Shown piece by piece: positions 1-64,000 of a stretch of 64,000 bases of DNA. Location of the stretch: contig NC_087436.1 in NCBI RefSeq assembly GCF_036321535.1, positions 3,224,001-3,288,000 on the forward strand. Reading direction: 5' to 3'. This DNA comes from Camelus dromedarius (taxonomy: Eukaryota). The notes under the pieces are model-generated. The model searched no databases, had not been told where the DNA came from, and saw only the letters and a list, made by a program, of their open reading frames with translations. The translations under genes were made by a program, and so were the position numbers. How positions within the stretch are numbered: the stretch's first letter is position 1; every line of letters starts with the position of its first letter.

Positions 1-5
1 GATAT

Positions 6-7481: not shown

Positions 7482-10181
7482 CAAAGGGAACAGTTTGCCA
7501 GAGAAACTTTTACTCTGGTTTCTCAGTCTGTTTCCTAGTGCCGGTTTGAAGTTACTGCAGTTTTAACTGTAAAACCGAGTTGTGGCTTGTACCTCCCCAT
7601 ATATATGTATGGAGTGGAGTTTGCAAATGAAAATAAACTTTGTGTTCCCAACAAGCTAGGTGAAGGACGGCTTTCACACACACTTATCTCTCAGGACTGA
7701 GCACGTGGAGAAACGTTCGTTCATCTAGTACAAAAGAAACGGTTTGCAGTAGAAAACTTTACTCTGGTTTCTCAGGCTTTTTCCTAGTGCCGGTTTGAAG
7801 TTCCTACATTTTTCACTGTAAAACGGAGTTGGAGCTAGTACCTCCCCATATATATGGATGGAGTGGAGTTTGCAAGTGAAAAGAAACTTTGTGTTCCCAA
7901 CAAGCTAGGTGAAGGATGGCTTTCACACACACTTATCTCCCAGAAATGAGCATGTGGAGAGAAGTTCGTTCATCTAGCACAAAGGGAACGGGTTGCAGGA
8001 GAAAATTTTACAGTGGTTTCCCAGTCTGTTTCGTAGTGCCGGTTTGAAGTTCCTGCAGTTTTCACTGTAAAACCTAGTTGGGGCTAGTAGCTCCCCATAA
8101 ATATGTATGGAGTGGAGTTTGCATCTGAAAAGAATCTTTGTGTTCCTAACAAGCTAGGTGAAGGACGGCTTTCACACACACTTATCTCTCAGGACTGAGC
8201 ATGTGGAGAGACGTTCGTTCATCTAGGAAATAGGAAACGGGTTGCAGGAGAAAATTTTACTCTGGTTTCTCAGTCTGTTTCCTAGTGCCGGTTTGAAGTT
8301 CCTGAAGATTTCACTGTAAAACCGATCTGTAGATAGTACCTCTCCATATATATGTATGGATTGGAGTTTGCAACTGAAAAGAAACTTTGTGTTCCCAACA
8401 AGCTAGGTGAAGTACGGCTTTCACACTCACTTATCTCTCAGAACTGAGCATGTGGAGAGACGTTCGTTCATCTAGCACAAATGAAACGGTTAGCAGGAGA
8501 AACTCTTACTCTCTTTTCCCAGTCTGTTTCCTAGTGCCGATTTGAAGTACCTGCAGTTTTCACTGTAAAACCAAGTTGGAGCTAGTACCTACCCATATAT
8601 ATGTATGGATTGGAGTTTGCAAGTGAAAAGAATCTTTGTCTTCCAAACAAGCTAGGTAAAGAACGCCTTTCACACACAATTATCTCTCAGAACTGAGCAT
8701 GTGGAGAGACGTTCGTTCATCTAGCAAAGGGAACGGTGTGCAGGAGAAAATATTACTCTGGTTTCCCAGTCTGTTTCCTAGTGCCGGTTTGAAGTTCCTG
8801 CAGTTTTCACTGTAAAACCGATTTGGAGCTAGTACCTCCCATATATATGTATGGATTGGAGTTTGCAAGTGAAAAGAATCTTTTTGTTCCGAAAACCTAG
8901 GTGAAGGACGGCTTTCACACACACTTATCTCTCAGGACTGAGCATGTGGAGAGACGTTCGTTCATCTAGGAAATAGGAAACGGGTTGCAGGAGAAACTTT
9001 CACTCTGGTTTCTCAGTCTATTTCCTAGTGCCGGTTTCAAGTTCCTGCAGTTTTCACTGTAAAACCAGTTGGGTAATGTACCTCCCCGTATATATGTATG
9101 GAGTGGAGTTTGCAAATGAAAAAAACTTTGTGTTCCTAACAAGCTAGGTGAAGGACGGCTTTCACACACACTTATCTCTCAGGACTGAGCATGTGGAGAG
9201 ACGATCGTTCAACTAGCCAAAAGGAACGGGTTGCAGGAGAAACTTTTACTCTGGTTTCTCAGACTGTTTCCTAGTGCCGGTTTGAAGTTCCTGCAGTTTT
9301 CACTGTAAAACCGAGTTGGAGCTAGTACCTAACCATATATATGTATGGAGTGAAGTTTGCAACTGAAAAGAAACTTTGTGTACCCAACAAGCTAGGTGAA
9401 ATACGACATTCACACACACATATCTCTCAGATATGAGCATGTGGAGAGACGTTCATTCATCTAGCACAAAGGGAACAGTTTGCCAGAGAAACTTTTACTC
9501 TGGTTTCTCAGTCTGTTTCCTAGTGCCGGTTTGAAGTTACTGCAGTTTTAACTGTAAAACCGAGTTGTGGCTTGTACCTCCCCATATATATGTATGGAGT
9601 GGAGTTTGCAAATGAAAATAAACTTTGTGTTCCCAACAAGCTAGGTGAAGGACGGCTTTCACACACACTTATCTCTCAGGACTGAGCACGTGGAGAAACG
9701 TTCGTTCATCTAGCACAAAGGAAACGGTTTGCAGTAGAAAACTTTACTCTGGTTTCTCAGGCTTTTTCCTAGTGCCGGTTTGAAGTTCCTACATTTTTCA
9801 CTGTAAAACGGAGTTGGAGCTAGTACCTCCCCATATATATGGATGGAGTGGAGTTTGCAAGTGAAAAGAAACTTTGTGTTCCCAACAAGCTAGGTGAAGG
9901 ATGGCTTTCACACACACTTATCTCCCAGAAATGAGCATGTGGAGAGAAGTTCGTTCATCTAGCACAAAGGGAACGGGTTGCAGGAGAAAATTTTACAGTG
10001 GTTTCCCAGTCTGTTTCGTAGTGCCGGTTTGAAGTTCCTGCAGTTTTCACTGTAAAACCTAGTTGGGGCTAGTAGCTCCCCATAAATATGTATGGAGTGG
10101 AGTTTGCATCTGAAAAGAATCTTTGTGTTCCTAACAAGCTAGGTGAAGGACGGCTTACACACACACTTATCTCTCAGGACT

Positions 10182-11426
10182 GAGCATGTGGAGAGACTTT
10201 CGTTCATCTAGGAAATAGGAAACGGGTTGCAGGAGAAAATTTTACTCTGGTTTCTCAGTCTGTTTCCTAGTGCCGGTTTGAAGTTCCTGAAGATTTCACT
10301 GTAAAACCGATCTGTAGATAGTACCTCTCCATATATATGTATGGATTGGAGTTTGCAACTGAAAAGAATCTTTGTGTTCCCAACAAGCTAGGTGAAGTAC
10401 GGCTTTCACACTCACTTATCTCTCAGAACTGAGCATGTGGAGAGACGTTCGTTCATCTAGCACAAATGAAACGGTTAGCAGGAGAAACTCTTACTCTCTT
10501 TTCCCAGTCTGTTTCCTAGTGCCGATTTGAAGTACCTGCAGTTTTCACTGTAAAACCGAGTTGGAGCTTGTACCTACCCATATATATGTATGGATTGGAG
10601 TTTGCAAGTGAAAAGAATCTTTGTCTTCCAAACAAGCTAGGTAAAGAACGCCTTTCACACACAATTATCTCTCAGAACTGAGCATGTGGAGAGACGTTCG
10701 TTCATCTAGCACAAAGGGAACGGTGTGCAGGAGAAAATATTACTCTGGTTTCCCAGTCTGTTTCCTAGTGCCGGTTTGAAGTTCCTGCAGTTTTCACTGT
10801 AAAACCGATTTGGAGCTAGTACCTCCCCATATATATGTATGGATTGGAGTTTGCAAGTGAAAAGAATCATTTTGTTCCGAAAACCTAGGTGAAGGACGGC
10901 TTTCACACACACTTATCTCTCAGGACTGAGCATGTGGAGAGACGTTCGTTCATCTAGGAAATAGGAAACGGGTTGCAGGAGAAAATTTTACTCTGGTTTC
11001 TCAGTCTGTTTCCTAGTGCCGGTTTGAAGTTCCTGAAGATTTCACTGTAAAACCGATCTGTAGATAGTACCTCTCCATATATATGTATGGATTGGAGTTT
11101 GCAACTGAAAAGAAACTTTGTGTTCCCAACAAGCTAGGTGAAGTACGGCTTTCACACACACTTATGTCTCAGAACTGAGCATGTGGAGAGACGTTCGTTC
11201 ATCTAGCACAAATGAAACGGTTAGCATGAGAAACTCTTACTCTCTTTTCCCAGTCTGTTTCCTAGTGTCGATTTGAAGTACCTGCAGTTTTCACAGTAAA
11301 ACCGAGTTGGAGCTAGTACCTACCCATATATATGTATGGATTGGAGTTTGCAAGTGAAAAGAATCTTTGTCTTCCAAACAAGCTTGGTAAAGAACGGCTT
11401 TCACACACAATTATCTCTCAGAACTG
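10182..11426 (+). repeat. Partial tandem repeat of a 3-monomer unit (746 bp; about 1.7 copies)
   Basis: The 'gatctgtagatag' monomer starts at 10182 and 10928, each followed by the 'caaatgaaacggttagc' monomer. The arrangement is repeated at ~58415-59660. Confidence 0.85.
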
Positions 11427-12789
11427 AGCATGTGGAGAGACGTTCGTTCATCTAGCAAAAAGGGAACGGGTTGCAGGAGAAACTTTTACTCTGGTTTCTC
11501 AGTCTGTTTCATAGTGCCGGTTTGATGTTCCTGCAGTTTTCACTGTAAAACCGAGTTGGAGCTAGTACTTCCCCATAAATATGTATGGAGTGGAGTTTGC
11601 AACTGAAAAGAAACTTTGTGTTCCCAACAAGCTAGGTGAATGACGGCTTTCACACACAATTATCTCTCAGAACTGAGCATGTGGAGAGACTTTCGTTCAT
11701 CTAGTCAAAATGAACGGGTTGCAGGAGAAACTTTCACTCTGGTTTCTCAGTATGTTTCCTAGTGCCGATTTTAAGTTCCTGCAGTTTTCACTGAGAATCC
11801 GAGTTGGGGCTAGTACCTCCCCATATATATGTATGGAGTGGAGGATGCAACTGAAAAGAAACTTTGTGTTCCCAACATGCTAGGTGAAGGACGGCTTTCA
11901 CACAAACTTATCTCTCAGAAATGAGCATGTGGAGAGACTTTCGTTCATCTAGCCAAAATGAACGGGTTGCAGGAGAAACTTTCACTCTGGTTTCTCAGTC
12001 TATTTCCTAGTGCCGGTTTCAAGTTCCTGCAGTTTTCACTGTAAAACCAGTTGGGTAATGTACCTCCCCGTATATATGTATGGAGTGGAGTTTGCAAATG
12101 AAAAAAACTTTGTGTTCCCAACAAGCTAGTTGAAGGACGGCTTTCACACACACTTATCTCTCAGAACTGAGCATGTGGAGAGACGTTCGTTCATCTAGCA
12201 AAAAGGGAACGGGTTGCAGGAGAAACTTTTACTCTGGTTTCACAGTCTGTTTCCTAGTGCCGTTTTGAATTTCCTGCAGTTTTCACTGAGAAACCGAGTT
12301 GGGGCTAGTACCTCCCCATATATATGTAAGGAGTGGAGTTTGCAACTGAAAAGAACTTTGTGTTCCCAACAAGTTAGGTGAAGGACGGCTTCCACACACA
12401 CTTATCTCTCAGAACTTAGCATGTGGAGAGACGTTTGTTCATCTAGCACAAAGGAAACGGTTTGCAGTAGAAAATTTTACTCTGGATTCTCAGTCTGTTT
12501 CCTAGTGCCGGTTTGATGTTCCTGCATTTTTCACTGTAAAACCGAGTTGGAGCTAGTACCTCCCCATATATATGTATGGATTGGAGTTTGCAAGTGAAAA
12601 GACACTTTGTGTTCCCAACAAGCTAGTTGAAGAATGGCTTTCACACGCACTTATCTCTCAGAACTGTGCATGTGGAGAGACGTTCGTTCATCTAGCACAA
12701 AGGGAACGGGTTGCAGGAGAAAATTTTACTGTGATTTCTCAGTCTGTTTCGTAGTGCCGGTATGAAGTTCCTGCAGTTTTCACTGTAAA

Positions 12790-15700
12790 ACAGAGTTCGG
12801 GCTAGTACCTCCCCATAAATATGTATGGAGTGGAGTTTGCAACTGAAAAGAAACTTTGTGTTCCCAACAAGCTATGTGAAGGGCGGCTTTCACACACACT
12901 TATCTCTCAGAACTGAGCATGTGGAGAGACTTTCGTTCATCTAGCACAAAGGAAACGGGTTGCAGGAAAAAATTTTACTCTGGTTTCTCAGTCTGTTTCC
13001 TAGTTCCGGTTTTAAGTTCCTGCAGTTTTCAATGTAAAACCGAGTTGGAGCAGGTACCTCCAAATATATATGTATGGATACCAGTTTGCAAGTTAAAAGA
13101 AACTTTGTTTTCCCAACATGCTAGGTGAAGGACGGCTTTCACACACAATTATCTCTCAGAACTGAGCATGTGGAGAGACGTTCGTTCATCTAGCACAAAG
13201 GGAACGGGTTGCAGGAGAAACTTTACTCTGGTTTCTCTGTCTGTTTCCTAGTGCCGGTTAGAAATTCCTGCAGTTTTCACTGTAAAACCGAGTTGGAGCT
13301 AGTACCTCCCCATATATATGTATGGATTGGAGTTTGCAAGTGAAAAGAACCTTTGTGTTCCCAACAAGCTAAGTGCAGGACGGCTTTCAAACACACTTAT
13401 CTCTCAGAAATGAGCATGTGGAGAGACGTTCGTTCATCTAGAAAAAAGGGAACGGGTTGCAGGGGAAATTTTACTCTGGATTCTCAGTCTGTTTCCTAGT
13501 GCCGGTTTGATGTTCCTGCATTTTTCACTGTAAAACCGAGTTGGAGCTAGTACCTCCCCATATATATGTATGGAATGGAGTTTGCAACTGAAAAGAAACT
13601 TTGTGTTCCCAACAAGCTAGGTGAAGGACGGCTTTCACACACACTTATCTCTCAGAACTGAGCATGTGGAGAGACTTTCGTTCATCTAGTCAAAATGAAC
13701 GGGTTGCAGGAGAAACTTTCACTCTGGTTTCTCAGTCTGTTTCCTAGTGCCGGTTTTAAGTTCCTGCAGTTTTCACTGAGAATCCGAGTTGGGGCTAGTA
13801 CCTCCCCATATATATGTATGGAGTGGAGTTTGCAACTGAAAAGAACTTTGTGTTCCCAACAAGTTAGGTGAAGGGCGGCTTCCACACACACTTATCTCTC
13901 AGATCTGAGCATGTGGAGAGACGTTCGTTCATCTAGCACAAAGGAAACGGTTTGCAGTAGAAAATATTACTCTGGTTTCTCAGTCTGTTTCCTAGTGCCG
14001 GTTTGATGTTCCTGCATTTTTCACTGTAAAACCGAGTTGGAGCTTGTACCACCCCATATATATGTATGGATTGGAATTTGCAAGTGAAAAGAAACTTTGT
14101 GTTCCCAACAAGCTAGCTGAACTATGGCTTTCACACGCACTTATCTCTCAGAACTGAGCATGTGGAGAGACGTTCGTTCATCTAGCACAAAGGGAACGGG
14201 ATGCAGGAGAAAATTTACTGTGGTTTCTCAGTCTGTTTCGTAGTGCCGGTATGAAGTTCCTGCAGTTTTCACTGAAAAACCGAATTGGGGCTAGTACCTC
14301 CCCATAAATATGTATGGAGTGGGATTTGCAACTGGAAAGAAACTTTCTGTTCCCAACAAGGTATGTGAAGGGAGGCTTTCACACAAAATTATCTCTCAGA
14401 ACTGAGCATGTGGAGAGACGTTCGTTCATCCAGCACAAAGGGAACGGGTTGCAGGAGAAAATTTTAATCTGGTTTCTCAGTCTGTTTCCTAGTGCCGGTT
14501 TAAAGTTCCTGCAGTTTTCTCTGTAAACCAAGTTGGAACTACTACCTCCACATATATATGTATGGAGTGGAGGATGCAACTGAAAAGAAACTTTGTGTTC
14601 CCAACATGCTAGTTGAAGGACGGCTTTCACACACACTTATATCTCTGAACTGAGCATGTGGAGAGACGTTTGTTCATCTAGCACAAAGGAAACGGTTTGC
14701 AGTAGAAAATTTTACTCTGGATTCTCAGTCTGTTTCCTAGTGCCGGTTTGATGTTCCTGCATTTTTCACTGTAAAACCGAGTTGGAGCTAGTACCTCCCC
14801 ATATATATGTATGGATTGGAGTTTGCAAGTGAAAAGACACTTTGTGTTCCCAACAAGCTATGTGAAGGACGACTTTCACACACACTTTTATCTCAGAACT
14901 GAGCATGTGGAGAGACGTTCGTTCATCTAGCAAATAGGGAACGGGTTGCAGGAGAAACTTTTACTCTGGTTTCTCAGTCTGTTTCCTAATGCCGGTTTGA
15001 AGTTCCTGCAGGTTTCACTGTAAAACTGAGTTGGAGCTAGTACCTCACCATATGTATGTATGGATTGGAGTTTGCAACTGAAAAGAAACTTTGTGTTCCC
15101 AACATGCTAGGTGAAGGACGGCTTTCACACACACTTATCTCTCAGAACTGAGCTTGTGGATAGACGTTCGTTCATCTAGCAAAAAGGGAACGGGTTGCAG
15201 GAGAAACTTTTACTCTGGATTCTCAGTCTGTTTCCTAGTGCCGGTTTAAAGTTCCTGCAGTTTTCTCTGTAAACCAAGTTGGAGCTACTACCTCCACATA
15301 TATATGTATGGAGTGGAGGATGCAACTGAAAAGAAACTTTGTGTTCCCAACATGCTAGGTGAAGGACGGCTTTCACACACACTTATCTCTCAGAAATGAG
15401 CATGAGGAGAGACTTTCGTTCATCTAGCCAAAATGAACGGGTTGCAAGAGAAACTTTCACTCTGGTTTCTCAGTCTGTTTCCTAGTGCCGGTTTCAAGTT
15501 CCTGCAGTTTTCACTGTAAAACCAGTTGGGTAATGTACCTCCCCGTATATATGTATGGAGTGGAGTTTGCAAGTGAAAAGACACTTTGTGTTCCCAACAA
15601 GCTAGTTGAAGAATGGCTTTCACACGCACTTTTCTCTCAGAACTGAGCATGTGGAGAGACGTTCGTTCATCTAGCACAAAGAGAACGGGTTGCAGGAGAA

Positions 15701-18700
15701 ACTTTTACTCTGGTTTCTCAGTCTGTTTCCTAATGCCGGTTTGAAGTTCCTGCAGGTTTCACTGTAAAATCGAGTTGGAGCTAGAACCTCCCCATATATA
15801 TGTATGGATTGGGGTTTGCAACTGAAACGAAACTTTGGTTTCCCAACAAGCTAGGTGAAGGACGGCTTTCACACACACTTATCTCTCTGAACTGAGCATG
15901 TTGAGAGACTTTCTTTCATCTAGGACAAAGGAACGGGTTGCAGTAGAAAATTTTACTCTGGTTTCTCTGTCTGTTTCTTAGGCCGGTTTGAAGTTCCTGC
16001 AGTTTTAACTGTAAAACAGAGTTCGGGCTAGTACCTCCCCATAAATATGTATGGAGTGGAGTTTGCAACTGAAAAGAAACTTTGTGTTCCCAACAAGCTA
16101 TGTGAAGGGCGGCTTTCACACACACTTATCTCTCAGAACTGAGCATGTGGAGAGACTTTCGTTCATCTAGCACAAAGGAAACGGGTTGCAGGAAAAAATT
16201 TTACTCTGGTTTCTCAGTCTGTTTCCTAGTTCCGGTTTTAAGTTCCTGCAGTTTTCAATGTAAAACCGAGTTGGAGCAGGTACCTCCAAATATATATGTA
16301 TGGATACCAGTTTGCAAGTTAAAAGAAACTTTGTTTTCCCAACATGCTAGGTGAAGGACGGCTTTCACACACAATTATCTCTCAGAACTGAGCATGTGGA
16401 GAGACGTTCGTTCATCTAGCACAAAGGGAACGGGTTGCAGGAGAAACTTTACTCTGGTTTCTCTGTCTGTTTCCTAGTGCCGGTTAGAAATTCCTGCAGT
16501 TTTCACTGTAAAACCGAGTTGGAGCTAGTACCTCCCCATATATATGTATGGATTGGAGTTTGCAAGTGAAAAGAACCTTTGTGTTCCCAACAAGCTAAGT
16601 GCAGGACGGCTTTCAAACACACTTATCTCTCAGAAATGAGCATGTGGAGAGACGTTCGTTCATCTAGAAAAAAGGGAACGGGTTGCAGGGGAAATTTTAC
16701 TCTGGATTCTCAGTCTGTTTCCTAGTGCCGGTTTGATGTTCCTGCATTTTTCACTGTAAAACCGAGTTGGAGCTAGTACCTCCCCATATATATGTATGGA
16801 ATGGAGTTTGCAACTGAAAAGAAACTTTGTGTTCCCAACAAGCTAGGTGAAGGACGGCTTTCACACACACTTATCTCTCAGAACTGAGCATGTGGAGAGA
16901 CTTTCGTTCATCTAGTCAAAATGAACGGGTTGCAGGAGAAACTTTCACTCTGGTTTCTCAGTCTGTTTCCTAGTGCCGGTTTTAAGTTCCTGCAGTTTTC
17001 ACTGAGAATCCGAGTTGGGGCTAGTACCTCCCCATATATATGTATGGAGTGGAGTTTGCAACTGAAAAGAACTTTGTGTTCCCAACAAGTTAGGTGAAGG
17101 GCGGCTTCCACACACACTTATCTCTCAGATCTGAGCATGTGGAGAGACGTTCGTTCATCTAGCACAAAGGAAACGGTTTGCAGTAGAAAATATTACTCTG
17201 GTTTCTCAGTCTGTTTCCTAGTGCCGGTTTGATGTTCCTGCATTTTTCACTGTAAAACCGAGTTGGAGCTTGTACCACCCCATATATATGTATGGATTGG
17301 AATTTGCAAGTGAAAAGAAACTTTGTGTTCCCAACAAGCTAGCTGAACTATGGCTTTCACACGCACTTATCTCTCAGAACTGAGCATGTGGAGAGAAGTT
17401 CGTTCATCTAGCACAAAGGGAACGGGATGCAGGAGAAAATTTACTGTGGTTTCTCAGTCTGTTTCGTAGTGCCGGTATGAAGTTCCTGCAGTTTTCACTG
17501 AAAAACCGAATTGGGGCTAGTACCTCCCCATAAATATGTATGGAGTGGGATTTGCAACTGGAAAGAAACTTTCTGTTCCCAACAAGGTATGTGAAGGGAG
17601 GCTTTCACACAAAATTATCTCTCAGAACTGAGCATGTGGAGAGACGTTCGTTCATCCAGCACAAAGGGAACGGGTTGCAGGAGAAAATTTTAATCTGGTT
17701 TCTCAGTCTGTTTCCTAGTGCCGGTTTAAAGTTCCTGCAGTTTTCTCTGTAAACCAAGTTGGAACTACTACCTCCACATATATATGTATGGAGTGGAGGA
17801 TGCAACTGAAAAGAAACTTTGTGTTCCCAACATGCTAGTTGAAGGACGGCTTTCACACACACTTATATCTCTGAACTGAGCATGTGGAGAGACGTTTGTT
17901 CATCTAGCACAAAGGAAACGGTTTGCAGTAGAAAATTTTACTCTGGATTCTCAGTCTGTTTCCTAGTGCCGGTTTGATGTTCCTGCATTTTTCACTGTAA
18001 AACCGAGTTGGAGCTAGTACCTCCCCATATATATGTATGGATTGGAGTTTGCAAGTGAAAAGACACTTTGTGTTCCCAACAAGCTATGTGAAGGACGACT
18101 TTCACACACACTTTTCTCTCAGAACTGAGCATGTGGAGAGACGTTCGTTCATCTAGCAAATAGGGAACGGGTTGCAGGAGAAACTTTTACTCTGGTTTCT
18201 CAGTCTGTTTCCTAATGCCGGTTTGAAGTTCCTGCAGGTTTCACTGTAAAACTGAGTTGGAGCTAGTACCTCCCCATATGTATGTATGGATTGGAGTTTG
18301 CAACTGAAAAGAAACTTTGTGTTCCCAACAAGCTAGGTGAAGGACGACTTTCACACACACTTATCTCTCAGAACTGAGCATGTGGAGAGACGTTCGTTCA
18401 TCTAGCACAAAGGGAACGGGTTGCATGGGAAAATTTTACTCTGGTTTCTCAGTCTTTTTCCAAGAGCCGGTTTGAAGATCCTGCAGTTTTCACTGTAAAA
18501 CCGACTTGGAGCTAGTACCTCCCCATATATATGTATGGATTGGGGTTTGCAAGTGAAAAGAAACTTTGTGTTCCCAACAAGCAAGGTGAAGGACGGCTTT
18601 CACACACACTTATCTCTCAGAACTGAGCTTGTGGATAGACGTTCGTTCATCTAGCAAAAAGGGAACGGGTTGCAGGAGAAACTTTTACTCTGGATTCTCA

Positions 18701-19490
18701 GTCTGTTTCCTAGTGCCGGTTTAAAGTTCCTGCAGTTTTCTCTGTAAACCAAGTTGGAGCTACTACCTCCACATATATATGTATGGAGTGGAGGATGCAA
18801 CTGAAAAGAAACTTTGTGTTCCCAACATGCTAGGTGAAGGACGGCTTTCACACACACTTATCTCTCAGAAATGAGCATGAGGAGAGACTTTCGTTCATCT
18901 AGCCAAAATGAACGGGTTGCAAGAGAAACTTTCACTCTGGTTTCTCAGTCTGTTTCCTAGTGCCGGTTTCAAGTTCCTGCAGTTTTCACTGTAAAACCAG
19001 TTGGGTAATGTACCTCCCCGTATATATGTATGGAGTGGAGTTTGCAAGTGAAAAGACACTTTGTGTTCCCAACAAGCTAGTTGAAGAATGGCTTTCACAC
19101 GCACTTTTCTCTCAGAACTGAGCATGTGGAGAGACGTTCGTTCATCTAGCACAAAGAGAACGGGTTGCAGGAGAAACTTTTACTCTGGTTTCTCAGTCTG
19201 TTTCCTAATGCCGGTTTGAAGTTCCTGCAGCTTTCACTGTAAAATCGAGTTGGAGCTAGAACCTCCCCATATATATGTATGGATTGGGGTTTGCAACTGA
19301 AACGAAACTTTGGTTTCCCAACAAGCTAGGTGAAGGACGGCTTTCACACACACTTATCTCTCTGAACTGAGCATGTTGAGAGACTTTCTTTCATCTAGGA
19401 CAAAGGAACGGGTTGCAGTAGAAAATTTTACTCTGGTTTCTCTGTCTGTTTCTTAGGCCGGTTTGAAGTTCCTGCAGTTTTCACTGTAAA
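12790..19490 (+). repeat. Tandem duplication of a 13/14-monomer unit (3,226 bp then 3,475 bp)
   Basis: Identical ORF pairs 12919/16145, 13682/16908 and 14379/17605 are offset by 3,226. Pairs 15176/18651 and 15420/18895 are offset by 3,475, which is one extra monomer at ~18376-18624. Confidence 0.92.
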
Positions 19491-52200: not shown

Positions 52201-55200
52201 TGAGCATGTGGAGAGACGTTCGTTCATCTAGCACAAAGGGAACGGTATGCAGGAGAAACATTTTCTCTGGTTTCTCAGTCTGTTTCCTAGTGCCGGTTTG
52301 AAGTTCCTGCAGTTTTCATTGTATAAACGAGTTGGACCTAGTACCTCCCCATATATATGTATGGAGTGGAGTTTGCAACTGAAAAGAAACTTTGTGTTCC
52401 CAACAAGCTAGTGGAAGGACGGCTTTCACCCACACTTATCTCTCAGAACTGAGCATGTGGAGAGACGTTCGTTCATCTAGCACAAAGGGAATGGGTTGCA
52501 GGGGAAAGTTTTACTCTGGTTTCTCAGTCTGTTTCCTAGTTCCGGTTTGAAGTTCCTGCAGTTTTCACTGTAAAACCGAGTTGGAGCTAGTTACTCCCCA
52601 TATATATGTATGGAGTGGAGTTTGCAACTGAAAAGAAACTTTGTGTTCCCAACAAGCTAGGTGAAGTACGGCTTTCACACACACGTAAATCTCAGAACTG
52701 ATCATGTGGAGAGACGTTCGTACATCAAGCACAAATGAAACGGGTTGCAGGAGAAACTTTTACTCTAGTTTCTCAGTCTGTTTCCTAGTGCCGGTTTGAA
52801 GTTCCTACAGTTTTCACTGTAAAACCGAGTTGGAACTTGTACCTCCCCATATATATGTACGGAGTGGAGTTTGCAACTGAAAAGAAACTTTGTGTTCCCA
52901 ACAAGCTAGGTGAAGGACGGCTTTCACACACATTTATCTCTCAGAACTGAGCATGTGGAGAGAAATTCATTCATCTAGCACAAAGGGAACGGTTTGCAGG
53001 TGTAACTTTTTCTCTGGTTTCTCAGTGTTTCCTAGTGCCGGTTTGAAGTTCCTGCATTTTTCACTGTAAAACCAAGTTGGAGCTAGTACCTCCCCATATA
53101 TATGTATGCAGTGGAGTTTGCAACTGAAAAGAAGCTTTGTGTTCCCAAAAAGCTAGGTGAAGGACGGCTTTCACACACACTTATCTCTCAGAACTGAGCA
53201 TGTGGAGAGACGTTCGTTCATCTAGCACAAAGGGAACGGGTTGCAGGAGAAACCTTTACTATGGTTTCTCAGTCTGTTTCCTAGTGCCGGTTAGAAGTTC
53301 CTGCAGTTTTCACTGTAAAACCGAGTTGGAGCTAGTACCTCCCCATATATACGTATGGAGTGGAGTTTGCAACTGAAAAGAAACTTTGTGTTCCCAACAA
53401 GCTAGGTGAAGGACGGCTTTCACACACACTTATCTCTCAGAACGGAGCATGTGGAGAGACGTTCGTTCATCTAGCACAAAGGGAACGGGTTGCAGGAGAA
53501 ACTTTTAATCTGGTTTCTCAGTCTGTTTCCTAGTGCCGATTTGAAGTTCCTGCAGTTTTCACTGTAAAACAGATTTAGAGCTAGTACCTACCCATATATA
53601 TGTATGGAGTGGAGTTTGCAACTGAAAAGAAACTTTGTGTTCCCAACAAGCTAGGTGAATGAAGGCTTTCACACACAATTATCTCTCAGAACTGAGCATG
53701 TGGAGAGACGTTCATTCATCTAGCACAAAGGGAACGGGTTGCAGGAGAAACTTTTACTCTGTTTTCTCAGTCTGTTTCCTAGTGCCGGTTTGAAGTTCCT
53801 GCAGTTTTCACTGTAAAACCAAGTTGGAGCCAGTACCTGCACATATATATGTATGGAGTGGTGTTTGCAACTGAATAGAAGCTTTGTGTTCCCAACAAGG
53901 TAGATGAAGGACGGCTTTCACACACACTTATCTCTCAGAACTGAGCATGTGGAGAGACATTCGTTCATCTAGCACAAAGGGAACGGGTTGCAGGAGAAAC
54001 TTTTACTCTGGTTTCTCAGTCTTTTTCCTAGTGCCTATTTGAAGTTCCAGCAGTTTTCTCTGTAAAACAGAGTTCGAGTTAGTACCTCCCCATATATATG
54101 TATGGAGTGGAGTTTGCAACTGAAAAGAAACTTTGTGTTCCCAACAAGCTAGGTGAAGGACGGTTTTCACACACACTTATCTCTCAGAACTGAGCATGTG
54201 GAGAGACGTTCGTTCATCTAGCACAAATGGAACGGGTTGCAGGTGAAACTTTTACTCTGGTTTCTCAGTCTGTTTCCTAGTGCCGGTTTGAAGTTCCTGC
54301 ATATATCACTGTAAAACAGATTTGGAGCTAGTACCTCCCCATATAATTGTATGGAGTGGAGTTTGCAACTGAAAAGAAACTATGTGTTCCCAACAAGCTA
54401 TGTGAAGGACGGCTTTCACACACATTTATCTCTCAGAACTGAGCATGTAGAGAGACGTTCGTTCATCTAGCACAAAGGGAACGGGTTGCAGGAGAAACTT
54501 TTACTCTGGTTTCTCAGTCTGTTTCCTACTGCCGGTTTGATATTCCTGCAGTTTTCACTGTAAAAACGTGTTGGAGCTAGTACATCCCCATATATATGTA
54601 TGGAGTGGAGTTTGCAACTGAAAAGAAACTTTGTGTTCCCAACAAGCTAGTTGAAGGACGGCTTTCATAAACACATATCTCTCATAAAAGAGCATGTGTA
54701 AAGACGTTCGTACATCTAGCACAAATGGAACGGTTTGCAGGGGAAACTTTTACTCTGGTTTCTCAGTCTGTTTCCTACTGCTGGTTTGATATTCCTGCAG
54801 TTTTCACTGTAAAAACGTGTTGGAGCTAGTAAATCCCCATATATATGTATGGAATGGAGTTAGCATCTAAAAAGAAACTTTGTGTTCCCAACAAGCTTGG
54901 TAAAGGACGGCTTTCACACACACTTATCTCTCAGAACCGAGCATGTGGAAAGACTTTCGTTCATCTAGCACAAAGAGAATGGGTTGCAGGAGAAACTTTT
55001 ACTCTGGTTTCTCAGTCTTTTTCCTAGTGCCGATTTGAAGTTCCTGCAGTTTTCACTGTAAAACCGATTTGGAGATAGTACCTCACCATATATATGTATG
55101 TAGTGGAGTTTGCAACTGAAAAGAAACTTTGTGTTCCCAACAAGCTAGGTGAAGGACGGCTTTCACACACACTTATCTCTCAGAACTGAGCATGTTTAGA

Positions 55201-56190
55201 GACGTTCGTTCATCTAGCACAAAGTGTATGGGTTGCCGGAGAAACTTTTACTCTGGTTTCTCATTCTGTTTCCTAGTGCCAGTTTGAAGTTCCTGCAGTT
55301 ATCACTGTAAAACTGAGATGGAGCTAGTACCTGCCCATATATATGTATGGAGTGGAGTTTGCAACTGAAAAGAAACTTTGTGTTCCCAACAAGTTGGTGA
55401 AAGATGGCTTTCACACACATTTATCTCTCAGAAATGAGCATGTGGAGAGAAGTTCATTCATCTAGCACAAAGGGAACGGGTTGCAGGGGAAACTTTTACT
55501 CTGGTTTCACAGTCTGTTTCCTAGTGCCGGTTTGAAGTTCCTGCAGTTTTCACTGTAAAGCAAATTTGGAGCTAGTAGTTCCCCATATAAATGTATGGAG
55601 TGGGGTTTGAAACTGAAAAGAAACTTTGTGTTCCCAACAATCTAGGTAAAGGACGGCTTTCACACACACTTATCTCTCAGAACTGAGCATGTGGAAAGAC
55701 GTTCGTTCATCTAGCACAAAGGGAACGGATACAGGAGAAACTTTTACTCTGGTTTCTCAATCTGTTTCCAGTGCCGGTTAGAAGTTCCTGAAGTTTTCAC
55801 TGTAAAACCGAGTTGGAGCTAGAACCTCCCCATATATATGTATGGAGTGGAGTTAGCAAATGAAAAGAAGCTTTGTGTTCCCAACAATCTATTTGAAGGA
55901 CGGCTTTCACACACACTTATCTCTCAGAACTGAGCATGTGGAGAGACATTCGTTCATCTAGCACAAAGGGAACGGGATGAAGGAGAAACTTTTACTCTGG
56001 TTTGTCAGTCTGTTTCCTAGTGCCGGTTTGAAGTTCCTGCAGTTTTCACTGTAAAACCGAGTTGGAGCTAGTACCTCCCCATATATATGTATGGATTGGA
56101 GTGTGCAAGTGAAAAGGAACTTTGTGTTCCCAACAATCTAGGTGAAGGACGACTTTCACACACACTTATCTCTCAAAACAGAGCATGTGT
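49200..56190 (+). repeat. Divergent monomeric satellite zone (~28 monomers) with no evident higher-order repeat
   Basis: Monomers carry mostly private substitutions and small deletions (e.g. ~49800, ~51785, ~53025, ~55770). I found no multi-monomer block repeated, and there is no recurring ORF between 49.1 and 54.8 kb. Confidence 0.75.
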
Positions 56191-59100
56191 AGAGAAGTTC
56201 GTTCATCTAGCACAAAGGGAACGGGTTGCAGGAGAAAATTTTACAGTGGTTTCCCAGTCTGTTTCGTAGTGCCGGTTTGAAGTTCCTGCAGTTTTCACTG
56301 TAAAACCTAGTTGGGGCTAGTAGCTCCCCATAAATATGTATGGAGTGGAGTTTCCATCTGAAAAGAATCTTTGTGTTCCTAACAAGCTAGGTGAAGGACG
56401 GCTTTCACACACACTTATCTCTCAGGACTCAGCATGTGGAGAGACGTTCGTTCATCTAGGAAATAGGAAACGGGTTGCAGGAGAAAATTTTACTCTGGTT
56501 TCTCAGTCTGTTTCCTAGTGCCGGTTTGAAGTTCCTGAAGATTTCACTGTAAAACCGATCTGTAGATAGTACCTCTCCATATATATGTATGGATTGGAGT
56601 TTGCAACTGAAAAGAAACTTTGTGTTCCCAACAAGCTAGGTGAAGTACGGCTTTCACACTCACTTATCTCTCAGAACTGAGCATGTGGAGAGACGTTCGT
56701 TCATCTAGCACAAATGAAACGGTTAGCAGGAGAAACTCTTACTCTCTTTTCCCAGTCTGTTTCCTAGTGCCGATTTGAAGTACCTGCAGTTTTCACTGTA
56801 AAACCGAGTTGGAGCTAGTACCTACCCATATATATGTATGGATTGGAGTTTGCAAGTGAAAAGAATCTTTGTCTTCCAAACAAGCTAGGTAAAGAACGCC
56901 TTTCACACACAATTATCTCTCAGAACTGAGCATGTGGGGAGACGTTCGTTCATCTAGCAAAGGGAACGGTGTGCAGGAGAAAATATTACTCTGGTTTCCC
57001 AGTCTGTTTCCTAGTGCCGGTTTGAAGTTCCTGCAGTTTTCACTGTAAAACCGATTTGGAGCTAGTACCTCCCATATATATGTATGGATTGGAGTTTGCA
57101 AGTGAAAAGAATCTTTTTGTTCCGAAAACCTAGGTGAAGGACGGCTTTCACACACACTTATCTCTCAGGACTGAGCATGTGGAGAGACGTTCGTTCATCT
57201 AGGAAATAGGAAACGGGTTGCAGGAGAAACTTTCACTCTGGTTTCTCAGTCTATTTCCTAGTGCCGGTTTCAAGTTCCTGCAGTTTTCACTGTAAAACCA
57301 GTTGGGTAATGTACCTCCCCGTATATATGTATGGAGTGGAGTTTGCAAATGAAAAAAACTTTGTGTTCCTAACAAGCTAGGTGAAGGACGGCTTTCACAC
57401 ACACTTATCTCTCAGGACTGAGCATGTGGAGAGACGATCGTTCATCTAGCCAAAAGGAACGGGTTGCAGGAGAAACTTTTACTCTGGTTTCTCAGACTGT
57501 TTCCTAGTGCTGGTTTGAAGTTCCTGCAGTTTTCACTGTAAAACCGAGTTGGAGCTAGTACCTAACCATATATATGTATGGAGTGAAGTTTGCAACTGAA
57601 AAGAAACTTTGTGTACCCAACAAGCTAGGTGAAATACGACATTCACACACACATATCTCTCAGATATGAGCATGTGGAGAGACGTTCATTCATCTAGCAC
57701 AAAGGGAACAGTTTGCCAGAGAAACTTTTACTCTGGTTTCTCAGTCTGTTTCCTAGTGCCGGTTTGAAGTTACTGCAGTTTTAACTGTAAAACCGAGTTG
57801 TGGCTTGTACCTCCCCATATATATGTATGGAGTGGAGTTTGCAAATGAAAATAAACTTTGTGTTCCCAACAAGCTAGGTGAAGGACGGCTTTCACACACA
57901 CTTATCTCTCAGGACTGAGCACGTGGAGAAACGTTCGTTCATCTAGCACAAAGGAAACGGTTTGCAGTAGAAAACTTTACTCTGGTTTCTCAGGCTTTTT
58001 CCTAGTGCCGGTTTGAAGTTCCTACATTTTTCACTGTAAAACGGAGTTGGAGCTAGTACCTCCCCATATATATGGATGGAGTGGAGTTGGCAAGTGAAAA
58101 GAAACTTTGTGTTCCCAACAAGCTAGGTGAAGGATGGCTTTCACACACACTTATCTCCCAGAAATGAGCATGTGGAGAGAAGTTCGTTCATCTAGCACAA
58201 AGGGAACGGGTTGCAGGAGAAAATTTTACAGTGGTTTCCCAGTCTGTTTCGTAGTGCCGGTTTGAAGTTCCTGCAGTTTTCACTGTAAAACCTAGTTGGG
58301 GCTAGTAGCTCCCCATAAATATGTATGGAGTGGAGTTTGCATCTGAAAAGAATCTTTGTGTTCCTAACAAGCTAGGTGAAGGACGGCTTTCACACACACT
58401 TATCTCTCAGGACTGAGCATGTGGAGAGAATTTCGTTCATCTAGGAAATAGGAAACGGGTTGCAGGAGAAAATTTTACTCTGGTTTCTCAGTCTGTTTCC
58501 TAGTGCCGGTTTGAAGTTCCTGAAGATTTCACTGTAAAACCGATCTGTAGATAGTACCTCTCCATATATATGTATGGATTGGAGTTTGCAACTGAAAAGA
58601 ATCTTTGTGTTCCCAACAAGCTAGGTGAAGTACGGCTTTCACACTCACTTATCTCTCAGAACTGAGCATGTGGAGAGACGTTCGTTCATCTAGCACAAAT
58701 GAAACGGTTAGCAGGAGAAACTCTTACTCTCTTTTCCCAGTCTGTTTCCTAGTGCCGATTTGAAGTACCTGCAGTTTTCACTGTAAAACCGAGTTGGAGC
58801 TTGTACCTACCCATATATATGTATGGATTGGAGTTTGCAAGTGAAAAGAATCTTTGTCTTCCAAACAAGCTAGGTAAAGAACGCCTTTCACACACAATTA
58901 TCTCTCAGAACTGAGCATGTGGAGAGACGTTCGTTCATCTAGCACAAAGGGAACGGTGTGCAGGAGAAAATATTACTCTGGTTTCCCAGTCTGTTTCCTA
59001 GTGCCGGTTTGAAGTTCCTGCAGTTTTCACTGTAAAACCGATTTGGAGCTAGTACCTCCCCATATATATGTATGGATTGGAGTTTGCAAGTGAAAAGAAT

Positions 59101-62100
59101 CATTTTGTTCCGAAAACCTAGGTGAAGGACGGCTTTCACACACACTTATCTCTCAGGACTGAGCATGTGGAGAGACGTTCGTTCATCTAGGAAATAGGAA
59201 ACGGGTTGCAGGAGAAAATTTTACTCTGGTTTCTCAGTCTGTTTCCTAGTGCCGGTTTGAAGTTCCTGAAGATTTCACTGTAAAACCGATCTGTAGATAG
59301 TACCTCTCCATATATATGTATGGATTGGAGTTTGCAACTGAAAAGAAACTTTGTGTTCCCAACAAGCTAGGTGAAGTACGGCTTTCACACACACTTATGT
59401 CTCAGAACTGAGCATGTGGAGAGACGTTCGTTCATCTAGCACAAATGAAACGGTTAGCAGGAGAAACTCTTACTCTCTTTTCCCAGTCTGTTTCCTAGTG
59501 CCGATTTGAAGTACCTGCAATTTTCACAGTAAAACCGAGTTGGAGCTAGTACCTACCCATATATATGTATGGATTGGAGTTTGCAAGTGAAAAGAATCTT
59601 TGTCTTCCAAACAAGCTTGGTAAAGAACGGCTTTCACACACAATTATCTCTCAGAACTGAGCATGTGGAGAGACGTTCGTTCATCTAGCAAAAAGGGAAC
59701 GGGTTGCAGGAGAAACTTTTACTCTGGTTTCTCAGTCTGTTTCATAGTGCCGGTTTGATGTTCCTGCAGTTTTCACTGTAAAACCGAGTTGGAGCTAGTA
59801 CTTCCCCATAAATATGTATGGAGTGGAGTTTGCAACTGAAAAGAAACTTTGTGTTCCCAACAAGCTAGGTGAATGACGGCTTTCACACACAATTATCTCT
59901 CAGAACTGAGCATGTGGAGAGACTTTCGTTCATCTAGTCAAAATGAACGGGTTGCAGGAGAAACTTTCACTCTGGTTTCTCAGTCTGTTTCCTAGTGCCG
60001 ATTTTAAGTTCCTGCAGTTTTCACTGAGAATCCGAGTTGGGGCTAGTACCTCCCCATATATATGTATGGAGTGGAGGATGCAACTGAAAAGAAACTTTGT
60101 GTTCCCAACATGCTAGGTGAAGGACGGCTTTCACACAAACTTATCTCTCAGAAATGAGCATGTGGAGAGACTTTCGTTCATCTAGCCAAAATGAACGGGT
60201 TGCAGGAGAAACTTTCACTCTGGTTTCTCAGTCTATTTCCTAGTGCCGGTTTCAAGTTCCTGCAGTTTTCACTGTAAAACCAGTTGGGTAATGTACCTCC
60301 CCGTATATATGTATGGAGTGGAGTTTGCAAATGAAAAAAACTTTGTGTTCCCAACAAGCTAGTTGAAGGACGGCTTTCACACACACTTATCTCTCAGAAC
60401 TGAGCATGTGGAGAGACGTTCGTTCATCTAGCAAAAAGGGAACGGGTTGCAGGAGAAACTTTTACTCTGGTTTCACAGTCTGTTTCCTAGTGCCGTTTTG
60501 AATTTCCTGCAGTTTTCACTGAGAAACCGAGTTGGGGCTAGTACCTCCCCATATATATGTAAGGAGTGGAGTTTGCAACTGAAAAGAACTTTGTGTTCCC
60601 AACAAGTTAGGTGAAGGACGGCTTCCACACACACTTATCTCTCAGAACTTAGCATGTGGAGAGACGTTTGTTCATCTAGCACAAAGGAAACGGTTTGCAG
60701 TAGAAAATTTTACTCTGGATTCTCAGTCTGTTTCCTAGTGCCGGTTTGATGTTCCTGCATTTTTCACAGTAAAACCGAGTTGGAGCTAGTACCTCCCCAT
60801 ATATATGTATGGTTTGGAGTTTGCAAGTGAAAAGACACTTTGTGTTCCCAACAAGCTAGTTGAAGAATGGCTTTCACACGCACTTATCTCTCAGAACTGA
60901 GCATGTGGAGAGACGTTCGTTCATCTAGCACAAAGGGAACGGGTTGCAGGAGAAAATTTTACTGTGATTTCTCAGTCTGTTTCGTAGTGCCGGTATGAAG
61001 TTCCTGCAGTTTTCACTGTAAAACAGAGTTCGGGCTAGTACCTCCCCATAAATATGTATGGAGTGGAGTTTGCAACTGAAAAGAAACTTTGTGTTCCCAA
61101 CAAGCTATGTGAAGGGCGGCTTTCACACACACTTATCTCTCAGAACTGAGCATGTGGAGAGACTTTCGTTCATCTAGCACAAAGGAAACGGGTTGCAGGA
61201 AAAAATTTTACTCTGGTTTCTCAGTCTGTTTCCTAGTTCCGGTTTTAAGTTCCTGCAGTTTTCAATGTAAAACCGAGTTGGAGCAGGTACCTCCAAATAT
61301 ATATGTATGGATACCAGTTTGCAAGTTAAAAGAAACTTTGTTTTCCCAACATGCTAGGTGAAGGACGGCTTTCACATACAATTATCTCTCAGAACTGAGC
61401 ATGTGGAGAGACGTTCGTTCATCTAGCACAAAGGGAACGTGTTGCAGGAGAAACTTTACTCTGGTTTCTCTGTCTGTTTCCTAGTGCCGGTTAGAAATTC
61501 CTGCAGTTTTCACTGTAAAACCGAGTTGGAGCTAGTACCTCCCCATATATATGTATGGATTGGAGTTTGCAAGTGAAAAGAACCTTTGTGTTCCCAACAA
61601 GCTAAGTGCAGGACGGCTTTCAAACACACTTATCTCTCAGAAATGAGCATGTGGAGAGACGTTCGTTCATCTAGAAAAAAGGGAACGGGTTGCAGGGGAA
61701 ATTTTACTCTGGATTCTCAGTCTGTTTCCTAGTGCCGGTTTGATGTTCCTGCATTTTTCACTGTAAAACCGAGTTGGAGCTAGTACCTCCCCATATATAT
61801 GTATGGAATGGAGTTTGCAACTGAAAAGAAACTTTGTGTTCCCAACAAGCTAGGTGAAGGACGGCTTTCACACACACTTATCTCTCAGAACTTAGCATGT
61901 GGAGAGACGTTCGTTCATCTAGCAAAAAGGGAACGGGTTGCAGGAGAAACTTTTACTCTGTTTTCTCAGTCTGTTTCCTAGTGCCGGTTTGATGTTCCTG
62001 CAGTTTTCACTGTAAAACCGAGCTGGAGCTAGAACTTCCCCATAAATATGTACGGAGTGGGGTTTGCAACTGAAAAGAAACTTTGTGTTCCCAACAAGCT

Positions 62101-64000
62101 AGGTGAATGACGGCTTTCACACACAATTATCTCTCAGAACTGAGCATGTGGAGAGACTTTCGTTCATCTAGTCAAAATGAACGGGTTGCAGGAGAAACTT
62201 TCACTCTGGTTTCTCAGTCTGTTTCCTAGTGCCGGTTTTAAGTTCCTGCAGTTTTCACTGAGAATCCGAGTTGGGGCCTGTACCTCCCCATATATATGTA
62301 TGGAGTGGAGTTTGCAACTGAAAAGAACTTTGTGTTCCCAACAAGTTAGGTGAAGGGCGGCTTCCACACACACTTATCTCTCAGATCTGAGCATGTGGAG
62401 AGACGTTCGTTCATCTAGCACAAAGGAAACGGTTTGCAGTAGAAAATATTACTCTGGTTTCTCAGTCTGTTTCCTAGTGCCGGTTTGATGTTCCTGCATT
62501 TTTCACTGTAAAACCGAGTTGGAGCTTGTACCACCCCATATATATGTATGGATTGGAATTTGCAAGTGAAAAGAAACTTTGTGTTCCCAACAAGCTAGCT
62601 GAACTATGGCTTTCACACGCACTTATCTCTCAGAACTGAGCATGTGGAGAGACGTTCGTTCATCTAGCACAAAGGGAACGGGATGCAGGAGAAAATTTAC
62701 TGTGGTTTCTCAGTCTGTTTCGTAGTGCCGGTATGAAGTTCCTGCAGTTTTCACTGAAAAACCGAATTGGGGCTAGTACCTCCCCATTAATATGTATGGA
62801 GTGGGATTTGCAACTGGAAAGAAACTTTCTGTTCCCAACAAGGTATGTGAAGGGAGGCTTTCACACAAAATTATCTCTCAGAACTGAGCATGTGGAGAGA
62901 CGTTCGTTCATCCAGCACAAAGGGAACGGGTTGCAGGAGAAAATTTTAATCTGGTTTCTCAGTCTGTTTCCTAGTGCCGGTTTAAAGTTCCTGCAGTTTT
63001 CTCTGTAAACCAAGTTGGAACTACTACCTCCACATATATATGTATGGAGTGGAGGATGCAACTGAAAAGAAACTTTGTGTTCCCAACATGCTAGTTGAAG
63101 GACGGCTTTCACACACACTTATATCTCTGAACTGAGCATGTGGAGAGACGTTTGTTCATCTAGCACAAAGGAAACGGTTTGCAGTAGAAAATTTTACTCT
63201 GGATTCTCAGTCTGTTTCCTAGTGCCGGTTTGATGTTCCTGCATTTTTCACTGTAAAACCGAGTTGGAGCTAGTACCTCCCCATATATATGTATGGATTG
63301 GAGTTTGCAAGTGAAAAGACACTTTGTGTTCCCAACAAGCTATGTGAAGGACGACTTTCACACACACTTTTCTCTCAGAACTGAGCATGTGGAGAGACGT
63401 TCGTTCATCTAGCAAATAGGGAACGGGTTGCAGGAGAAACTTTTACTCTGGTTTCTCAGTCTGTTTCCTAATGCCGGTTTGAAGTTCCTGCAGGTTTCAC
63501 TGTAAAACTGAGTTGGAGCTAGTACCTCCCCATATGTATGTATGGATTGGAGTTTGCAACTGAAAAGAAACTTTGTGTTCCCAACAAGCTAGGTGAAGGA
63601 CGACTTTCACACACACTTATCTCTCAGAACTGAGCATGTGGAGAGACGTTCGTTCATCTAGCACAAAGGGAACGGGTTGCATGAGAAAATTTTACTCTGG
63701 TTTCTCAGTCTTTTTCCAAGAGCCGGTTTGAAGATCCTGCAGTTTTCACTGTAAAACCGACTTGGAGCTAGTACCTCCCCATATATATGTATGGATTGGG
63801 GTTTGCAAGTCAAAAGAAACTTTGTGTTCCCAACAAGCAAGGTGAAGGACGGCTTTCACACACACTTATCTCTCAGAACTGAGCTTGTGGATAGACGTTC
63901 GTTCATCTAGCAAAAAGGGAACGGGTTGCAGGAGAAACTTTTACTCTGGATTCTCAGTCTGTTTCCTAGTGCCGGTTTAAAGTTCCTGCAGTTTTCTCTG
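56190..64000 (+). repeat. Near-identical second copy of domain 1 sequence from ~7,957 onward (offset 48,233 bp); runs off the window end
   Basis: ORF pairs 8680/56913, 8966/57199, 10706/58939, 11945/60178 and 12919/61152 are all offset by 48,233. The offset becomes 48,482 after one extra monomer at ~61893-62141. Confidence 0.95.

Follow-up and report, generated by a model that had tools for sequence, protein, structure and literature searches.

A tier of repetition far above HORs is not new, since in human the alpha-satellite centromeres of chromosomes 12, 6 and X are known to carry macro-repeats spanning hundreds of kb (Altemose et al., 10.1101/2021.07.12.452052). In plants, nested duplications and local HORs have been reported for the centromeric satellites maize CentC, rice CEN155 and Arabidopsis CEN178 (PMC13011684; 10.1101/2024.07.28.605524; 10.1101/2025.06.02.657473). 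In the centromeres of Arabidopsis mutation-accumulation lines all insertions (35/35) were tandem and period-preserving, with sizes of 1-31 units in the wild-type lines (10.1101/2025.06.02.657473), and both unequal exchange and break-induced replication (BIR) have been proposed as models for satellite arrays (PMC8997354). Among camelids, supplementary files 1 and 3 of Melters 2013 (PMC4053949) give a candidate centromere tandem repeat of 248 nt for the llama (Lama glama), amounting to 2.9% of its genome, while a recent alpaca survey set aside the camelid centromeric satellites (PMC13751797). We found no description of the array or duplication reported here in the camelid literature, a weak negative result as subscription papers were poorly covered.

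Tandem-repeat and monomer analysis of the window, that is, the whole 64-kb stretch of DNA under study, revealed a period of 249 with 257.5 copies arranged head-to-tail, so that the entire window is satellite.

1..64000, + strand: 249-bp satellite array in a single orientation, with 257 full monomers (m1 to m257; 245-251 bp) and neither N nor interruption

All the monomers are about 90% alike. Judging by its sequence, the array belongs to the same family as the llama repeat, from which the window consensus differs by 13 substitutions and 1 indel (14/249, counted by eye), and it can be regarded as a putative centromere-type satellite. Both repeats fall in the same monomer length class (about 248 bp) with the same head-to-tail layout and very high copy, whereas the PstI site of the window consensus is lacking in the llama repeat. 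In the public run X22, which may be from another species, 16,045 of 13.2 million reads fell on 994 bp at 99% likeness, and the satellite reached a peak depth of about 6,700 in 1,913 million letters. Besides, 20 of 23 public runs contain 66-78% of the sampled words, which mostly reflects shared satellite. The alpaca satellite families were rejected as a match because their 2.3-8.5 kb units do not fit, and one supplement of that survey gave no match to the unit length or to five short motifs (PMC13751797). Searches for the CENP-B box (both strands, at most one mismatch) and for inverted repeats (reverse-complement 24-mers) gave no matches within the window, nor did an Rfam search of positions 55,000-58,000.

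A human alpha-satellite HOR array repeats one multi-monomer unit many times head-to-tail; in the window, each monomer family comprises 2-8 members whose neighbours vary, and no unit occurs in a long series, so the array is not a canonical HOR array. It is similar to CentC, CEN155 and CEN178 in having low-copy, locally confined multi-monomer repeats, and also in its period-preserving tandem duplications and chimeric junction monomers. The table of Melters 2013 has higher-order structure as 'not found' for the llama (PMC4053949), whereas the window contains nested local duplications and one of 45-48 kb. The 26 young segments that we listed were grouped by hand into 7 events, 2 of them open at the window edges, and all five multi-monomer duplications lying wholly within the window are tandem (three by a strict scripted rule, the other two as tandem with internal monomer loss). 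The local features that bear on the argument are as follows.

6..2488, + strand: m1-10, running off the window start, a copy of m31-40 (0.28%) at an offset of 30 monomers or 7,444 bp
3978..7449, + strand: local tandem duplication of 7 monomers (m17-23 / m24-30) at 0.36%, lying beyond the duplicated block
12915..19615, + strand: local tandem duplication of 14 monomers within the left copy (m53-65 / m66-79), 3 differences in 2,739 bp, with chimeric junction monomer m65
20860..33793, + strand: tandem duplication of 25/26 monomers (m85-110 / m111-136), older (0.6-0.85%) and interrupted by indels of whole monomers
31805..38764, + strand: local tandem 14-monomer duplication (m129-142 / m143-156), 0.34%
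39761..40009, + strand: m161, an isolated m35/m229-type monomer (19 derived variants in common) with unrelated neighbours
49469..56180, + strand: zone without young duplicates (m200-226), nearest neighbour at 14 differences vs 1-2 elsewhere

The first copy of the m53-65 / m66-79 duplication lost the m75 equivalent, and the m129-142 / m143-156 duplication is roughly as old as the large event described below. An earlier note on this DNA had divided the 7,957-56,190 block into four sub-family domains and spoken of a divergent monomeric zone. Neither description fits: two monomers of one block differ on average at 18-27 positions, which overlaps the 21-27 seen between monomers of different blocks, the domains being patches of local duplication and not sequence sub-families, and m200-226 are closer to the consensus (12.3) than m1-52 (15.9), a zone that merely lacks young duplicates.

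The strongest 24-mer diagonal in the self-comparison of the window lies at +48,233, equal to 194 monomers. As the earlier note had observed, the sequence from about 7,957 onward resumes near 56,190 as a near-identical copy: 56,181-61,922 and 7,948-13,689 are 99.63% identical, with 21 mismatches in 5,742 bp and no gaps, and the quoted SNP is present (A at 8,705, G at 56,938). The two copies are made up of the following parts.

7948..13659, + strand: left (source) copy, part 1 (m33-55), its left edge a natural, scarless b-to-c adjacency
56181..61892, + strand: right copy, part 1 (m227-249 = m33-55), offset 48,233, 19 differences in 23 monomers
61893..62141, + strand: m250, found only in the right copy, probably ancestral and lost from the left; a k-type monomer preceding an l-type one, as in m241-m242
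62142..64000, + strand: right copy, part 2, running off the window end: m251-257 plus the final 120 bp, equivalent to m69-76 at an offset of 45,256
16886..18744, + strand: left copy, part 2 (m69-75 and the start of m76), true partner of 62,142-64,000

The collinearity claimed for at least 7.8 kb is not borne out on a single diagonal: the copy reaches the window end by way of an offset shift, and the +48,233 diagonal itself holds for 5.74 kb, or 73% of 56,190-64,000. Today the offset is 48,233 before 13.7 kb and 45,256 after 16.9 kb. Six derived variants are common to m250 and m241 and 12 to m251 and m242, while m257 differs from m75 at 2 columns and from m62, the next monomer on the 13.7-15.2 kb path, at 26. 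Overall, the copies differ by 25 substitutions in 7,451 bp (0.34%) and are thus 99.7% identical over 30 ordered monomers, and the distance between them far exceeds the local units of 7-26 monomers. The longest collinear run, of 23 monomers, is beyond chance, since shuffling the monomer order gave runs of at most 3 in all 200 shuffles. A source in m3-10 (offset 224) was also considered, which is equally close over 8 monomers (10 vs 8 differences, with no shared derived variant either way); it fails after m10 and was rejected as partner because m33-55 runs for 23 monomers.

The point at which the right copy begins can be confined to a few bases.

56181..56195, + strand: novel in-register junction from m226 to m227; a T at 56,190 may be a left-side remnant, narrowing it to 56,191-56,195

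The switch falls between the last difference from m32, at 56,180, and the first copy-diagnostic base, at 56,196. Contrary to the claim that the sequence stops mid-monomer, both flanking monomers are full (249 bp), none is truncated and the 249-bp phase is kept, and this 15-bp interval in exact register resembles the chimeric junction monomer m65 of a plain local tandem duplication. A b-type monomer precedes six of the seven c-type monomers, m227 being the sole exception, and m226 has only 1 of 19 derived variants in common with the b-type m32, compared with 11-19 of 19 for the other six c-type predecessors. The novel adjacency thus exists only at m226/227. The m10/11 junction lies, like m226/227, at a b/c boundary, which raised the question whether the two might be reciprocal products; the region has about 7 junctions, and by a rough estimate such a coincidence is not rare.

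Four of the 23 public runs were aligned to 55,685-56,678 for junction reads. Among the 24 matches listed, no short-read contig crosses the junction with as many as 31 bases on either side of it, contigs there being 34-64 bases long, and an exact 33-base pattern had no match in metagenome contigs. One 35-base X1 contig equals 56,161-56,195 exactly and ends one base before the first copy-diagnostic site; this end could mark a branch to two continuations, although contig ends in satellite are uninformative.

With the junction, its register, the path of the copy and its divergence all directly observed, we favour a single, real, homology-directed tandem duplication in register, measuring about 41-45 kb or 168-182 monomers when it arose, with a probability of roughly 0.55. 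The tandem form of all five closed young events in the window, and of every insertion in the Arabidopsis lines, speaks for this reading. The earlier note had proposed a recent tandem duplication, and its long range, youth (0.34%) and novel junction near 56,190 stand, with tandem as the likeliest form; its size of about 48.2 kb or 194 monomers is the present offset and not the duplicated unit. Since 48.2 kb measures the left copy of today, recurrence downstream is expected at +45.26 kb. The event would start with a broken fork (out-of-register BIR) or unequal sister exchange, in which the end of m226 paired about 45 kb upstream, where the c-type m33 starts. Because all monomers are so alike, the join would keep the phase, leaving one novel junction and no scar at 7,948. 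The copies would then gather their 25 substitutions, and the left copy would later lose its m250 equivalent, duplicate 14 monomers locally and lose another monomer, edits (net two monomers lost besides the 14-monomer duplication) that would yield the two offsets; their order is suggested by shared variants and adjacency. The repair pathway would be homology-directed exchange or BIR, the right copy would run on to about 101.4 kb, and a generic mammalian rate would place the duplication roughly 0.1-0.8 million years ago. Of the substitutions, 16 are right-derived and 9 left-derived, and together with three structural differences they argue against the same haplotype having been assembled twice. 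Against the tandem reading stands the size of the event, about 7 times that of the largest closed duplication seen here (at most 26 monomers) and beyond the 1-31 units of the wild-type Arabidopsis lines; nor do the short-read matches listed include a contig across the junction.

It is possible, although we think it doubtful, that the zone without young duplicates received an in-register insertion of part of the block only, 7.8 kb or more in length. Template switching could have brought it there, as could conversion over a long tract or an excised circle that integrated again. Such a dispersed copy predicts the same novel left junction, and shared blocks in maize knobs are reported to skip about 1 Mb (PMC13011684). 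Moreover, m161 lies 17-29 kb from its nearest relatives and its neighbour m160 shares 0 variants with the types expected there; m161 shows that non-adjacent copies or heavy erosion occur in the array, which counts against the tandem reading. However, none of the five closed young multi-monomer events is dispersed, and the right copy is still continuing after 31 monomers, the part visible in the window of the approximately 182 expected under a tandem duplication. A deletion scar in a larger, earlier macro-duplication, its unit starting upstream of the window and 7,948 being the deletion end only, seems improbable. The scarless left edge leaves the extent of the unit undefined, the left copy has twice lost a monomer without a change of register, and Arabidopsis rtel1 lines have period-preserving deletions of 59.5 and 105 kb (10.1101/2025.06.02.657473), but two large events are required where one suffices, and nothing in the window calls for the second.

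We give little credence to an assembly misjoin, in which haplotypes or parts of the array were joined in series by a haplotype switch or alignment-based gap fill. A divergence of 0.34% plus monomer indels would be plausible between homologous satellite haplotypes, alignment-based patching also yields an in-register join, and the missing bridge among the short-read matches listed fits as well. Yet the window has no N, m226 and m32 differ at 29 columns and so give an overlap-based join nothing to work on, exact phase would result from a blunt join only about once in 249, and the absence of indels in 5,742 bp points to accurate sequence. There is likewise a slim chance of at least three head-to-tail units, each of some 45 kb (about 182 monomers), the second of them starting at 56,181 and the rest following downstream. 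Such a giant nascent higher-order unit would be amplifying an otherwise HOR-less camelid centromere satellite 45 kb at a time, perhaps through rolling or by re-initiating repeatedly at one junction. The left copy would then be the first unit; the upstream flank (m11-30) differs from the unit by 2-10 differences per monomer and is therefore older. Against several units, the depth of the junction bin is 0.82 (about one copy) in the X22 letters, a run possibly from another species. Arabidopsis simulations indicate that local expansions alone can split one block and so give long-distance similarity (10.1101/2025.06.02.657473), an origin of the 45-48 kb spacing that has practically no chance here. 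Even when up to 7 differences are allowed (2.8%, or eight times the divergence of the copies), the 147 intervening monomers form at least 84 groups, and 124 when 1 difference is allowed; since they stay distinct, they predate the copy, and local expansion cannot explain the spacing. Besides, the copy is an ordered 30-monomer repeat and not a split block.

A single tandem duplication of this size is most likely an ordinary event, of a kind known from the centromeres of humans and plants. It is a large-scale outcome of the same process that produced the local 7-26-monomer repeats, and it implies no function. As in the human macro-repeats, a large recent duplication lies over satellite and later local duplications tell the copies apart (10.1101/2021.07.12.452052), but it is smaller (45 kb vs hundreds of kb) and, unlike them, lies in an array without a chromosome-wide HOR or CENP-B box. 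Compared with the largest wild-type Arabidopsis insertion it is about six times larger, and it is mammalian. If the tandem reading is true, this is a datable case of a mammalian centromere-type array without a fixed HOR growing by 45 kb at once and then being edited by events of 1-14 monomers, and the junction is a unique marker for typing camelid centromere haplotypes. Current models are unchanged, as both unequal exchange and BIR are expected to give large duplications that preserve the period, and human centromeres offer described examples.

In addition, the substitutions between young copies are rich in transversions (37 transitions vs 88 transversions), in agreement with the value of 0.55 reported for human active alpha satellite, a spectrum that may be a more general point than the duplication.

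The large duplication involves the following features (window coordinates, forward strand; m1-m257 are the numbered 249-bp satellite monomers):

7,948-13,659: m33-55, first part of the left (source) copy
16,886-18,744: m69-76, second part of the left copy
56,181-56,195: interval containing the junction
56,181-61,892: m227-249, first part of the right copy
61,893-62,141: m250, unpaired on the left
62,142-64,000: m251-257 and the final 120 bp, second part of the right copy, open at the window end

Along the strongest self-match diagonal in the window (+48,233), positions 7,948-13,689 and 56,181-61,922 differ by 21 mismatches in 5,742 bp with 0 gaps, m33-55 corresponding to m227-249, a collinear run of 23 monomers against at most 3 in 200 of 200 shuffles of monomer order. 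This diagonal ends after m249, and from m251 onward the right copy pairs with m69-76 at an offset of +45,256, with m257 differing by 2 bases from m75 and by 26 from m62. Along the 7,451 bp of the best path the copies differ by 25 substitutions (0.34%; 95% interval ~0.21-0.49%), of which 16 are derived in the right copy and 9 in the left. The earlier note had described a near-identical copy collinear for at least 7.8 kb; order is indeed kept over the whole 7.8 kb, but the quoted diagonal covers 73% of it.

m226 last differs from m32 at 56,180, and the copied c-type monomer is first recognizable at its diagnostic base 56,196, which places the breakpoint within 56,181-56,195. Full 249-bp monomers stand on both sides in unbroken phase, so that the mid-monomer stop proposed at ~56,190 does not hold, no truncation being found. 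Of seven c-type monomers, six have immediately before them a b-type monomer that shares 11-19 of 19 derived variants with m32; since only m227 lacks such a predecessor, m226 carrying 1 of the 19, the novel adjacency lies on the right side (m226/m227). The left edge at 7,948 is scarless, and this combination is what a tandem duplication predicts, though the prediction is not unique to it. Besides, the 30-monomer duplication ends on the right at m10/m11 (2,488-2,504), and both this end and the junction break at a b/c boundary, within ~15 bp of phase; the two breaks could be reciprocal products or a coincidence.

The duplication is present in the sequence and is most likely an ordinary large tandem duplication: of the macro-duplication originally proposed, with its junction near 56,190, the ordered copy and the novel adjacency were retained, whereas its size, domains and mid-monomer stop were not. 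Its simplest account, to which we assign a probability of about 0.55, is one tandem duplication made in register, through either unequal exchange or out-of-register break-induced replication, both available as models (PMC8997354). Local growth splitting one block, a route to long-distance similarity shown in Arabidopsis simulations (10.1101/2025.06.02.657473), was rejected because 84 of 147 intervening monomers stay distinct at >7 differences, and a long-range event is therefore needed. That event may instead have been a dispersed copy of the segment and not of the whole block, a somewhat unlikely reading that has the isolated monomer m161 in its favor. This monomer (39,761-40,009) is a lone representative of the m35/m46/m229 type (19 derived variants in common), with relatives 17-29 kb away; m162 also has a few of these variants, and m161 may be a long-range transfer or the relic of an eroded duplication. 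A deletion scar within a larger duplication would be indistinguishable from a tandem duplication within the window, and we consider it improbable. An assembly misjoin appears equally improbable, since the window is free of N, m226 and m32 do not overlap (29 differences) and phase at the junction is exact, although an alignment-based gap fill would likewise keep phase.

For read evidence, 4 of 23 public runs were compared with 55,685-56,678 at 99% likeness, giving contigs of only 34-64 bases; none of the 24 contig pieces listed, from a far longer list (144,725 more), spanned the junction with 31 bases to its left and right. One contig from run X1 matches 56,161-56,195 exactly, ending one base before the first diagnostic site. 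Raw reads of run X22 (organism C, maybe another species than that of the window) have a depth of 0.82 in the junction bin, about single copy if the sample has ~0.9-fold coverage, as estimated from run sizes, which argues against a much-amplified junction for organism C only.

The monomer m250 would be ancestral and lost from the left copy, because it is a k-type monomer before an l-type one, as m241 is before m242 (6 and 12 derived variants in common, respectively). After losing its m250 equivalent, the left copy would have duplicated 14 monomers locally (3 differences in 2,739 bp; interval 0.02-0.32%) and then lost, from the first of these 14-monomer copies, its m75 equivalent; the junction monomer m65 is chimeric, beginning as m79-type and changing to m52-type for its second half. 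With later edits removed, the duplicated unit would comprise 182 monomers (45.3 kb). The m129-156 duplication is equally old (0.34%); should it too postdate the large event, the unit would shrink to 168 monomers. At the generic mammalian rate of ~2e-9 substitutions per site per year, 0.34% would correspond to ~0.8 million years. Rates 4- to 10-fold higher, such as those reported near human centromeres (PMC11062924) and in Arabidopsis arrays (10.1101/2025.06.02.657473), would reduce this age to 0.1-0.2 million years.

The four sub-family domains proposed earlier were not recovered, as the mean pairwise difference between monomers is 18-27 inside a block, a range overlapping the 21-27 obtained across blocks. 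Nor is the 'divergent' monomeric zone at 49.5-56.2 kb the more distant from the consensus, at 12.3 differences against 15.9 in the first 13 kb. We listed 26 young duplicated segments and grouped them by hand into seven events, the remainder being by-products of those seven. Five closed events (7, 8, 13/14, 14, and 25/26 monomers) are all tandem, three by a strict scripted rule and two with internal monomer loss, while the large event and a 30-monomer one are open at the window edges. The latter pairs 6-2,488 with 7,450-9,932 (0.28%) and is open at the window start; if it is tandem, m11-30 look-alikes are expected within the 5 kb preceding the window. Small 3- and 7-monomer duplications (m179-184, m182-190) occur at 43,000-48,500, where near-consensus monomers (m180, m183, m190, and m196) cluster and the zone without long duplicates begins.

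Large duplications of this kind are already known from other centromeres. Human chromosomes 12, 6, and X carry macro-repeats of up to hundreds of kb in which, as in the window, local duplications were later added in one copy (10.1101/2021.07.12.452052), maize combines local HORs with 1-Mb similarity blocks (PMC13011684), and nested arrays of several layers occur in rice (10.1101/2024.07.28.605524). An alpaca satellite survey set centromeric repeats aside (PMC13751797), and the available text of a centromere atlas preprint (10.64898/2026.09.17.752431) held no mention of the satellite family; no published account of the large duplication was found in the literature, where bioRxiv supplements may hold comparable cases.

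A single head-to-tail satellite of period 249 fills all 64,000 bases (GC ~43%, no N, no inverted part). Segmentation followed by monomer alignment gave 257 full monomers of 245-251 bp, ~9-10% apart, with local duplications superimposed; the window neither forms a canonical HOR array nor contains a CENP-B box. Compared by eye with the 248-nt candidate centromere repeat of Lama glama (PMC4053949), the consensus shows 13 substitutions and 1 indel, in agreement with a camelid origin. That repeat makes up 2.9% of the llama genome, with higher-order structure given as 'not found' (Melters et al. 2013 supplement, PMC4053949). The family is very abundant, reaching a peak depth of ~6,700 in X22 (1,913 million letters). 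MspI and PstI have one site each per monomer (consensus columns 92 and 106; 224 and 186 sites in the window), the PstI site being absent from the llama sequence. Older restriction studies of camelids described MspI/PstI satellites, to which these sites may correspond, although a literature search did not turn them up.

Transversions exceed transitions among young-copy differences (37 transitions vs 88 transversions, a ratio of 0.42), counted over eight sets of pairs from which most junction monomers were excluded; measured against the consensus, the ratio is 0.35-0.46 in all five zones of the window. The same bias in variants fixed in 56 families (182 vs 463, 0.39) indicates that the excess is not sequencing error. 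CpG sites are mostly intact in the window, and human active alpha satellite is likewise transversion-rich, with a ratio of 0.55 (PMC13684623).
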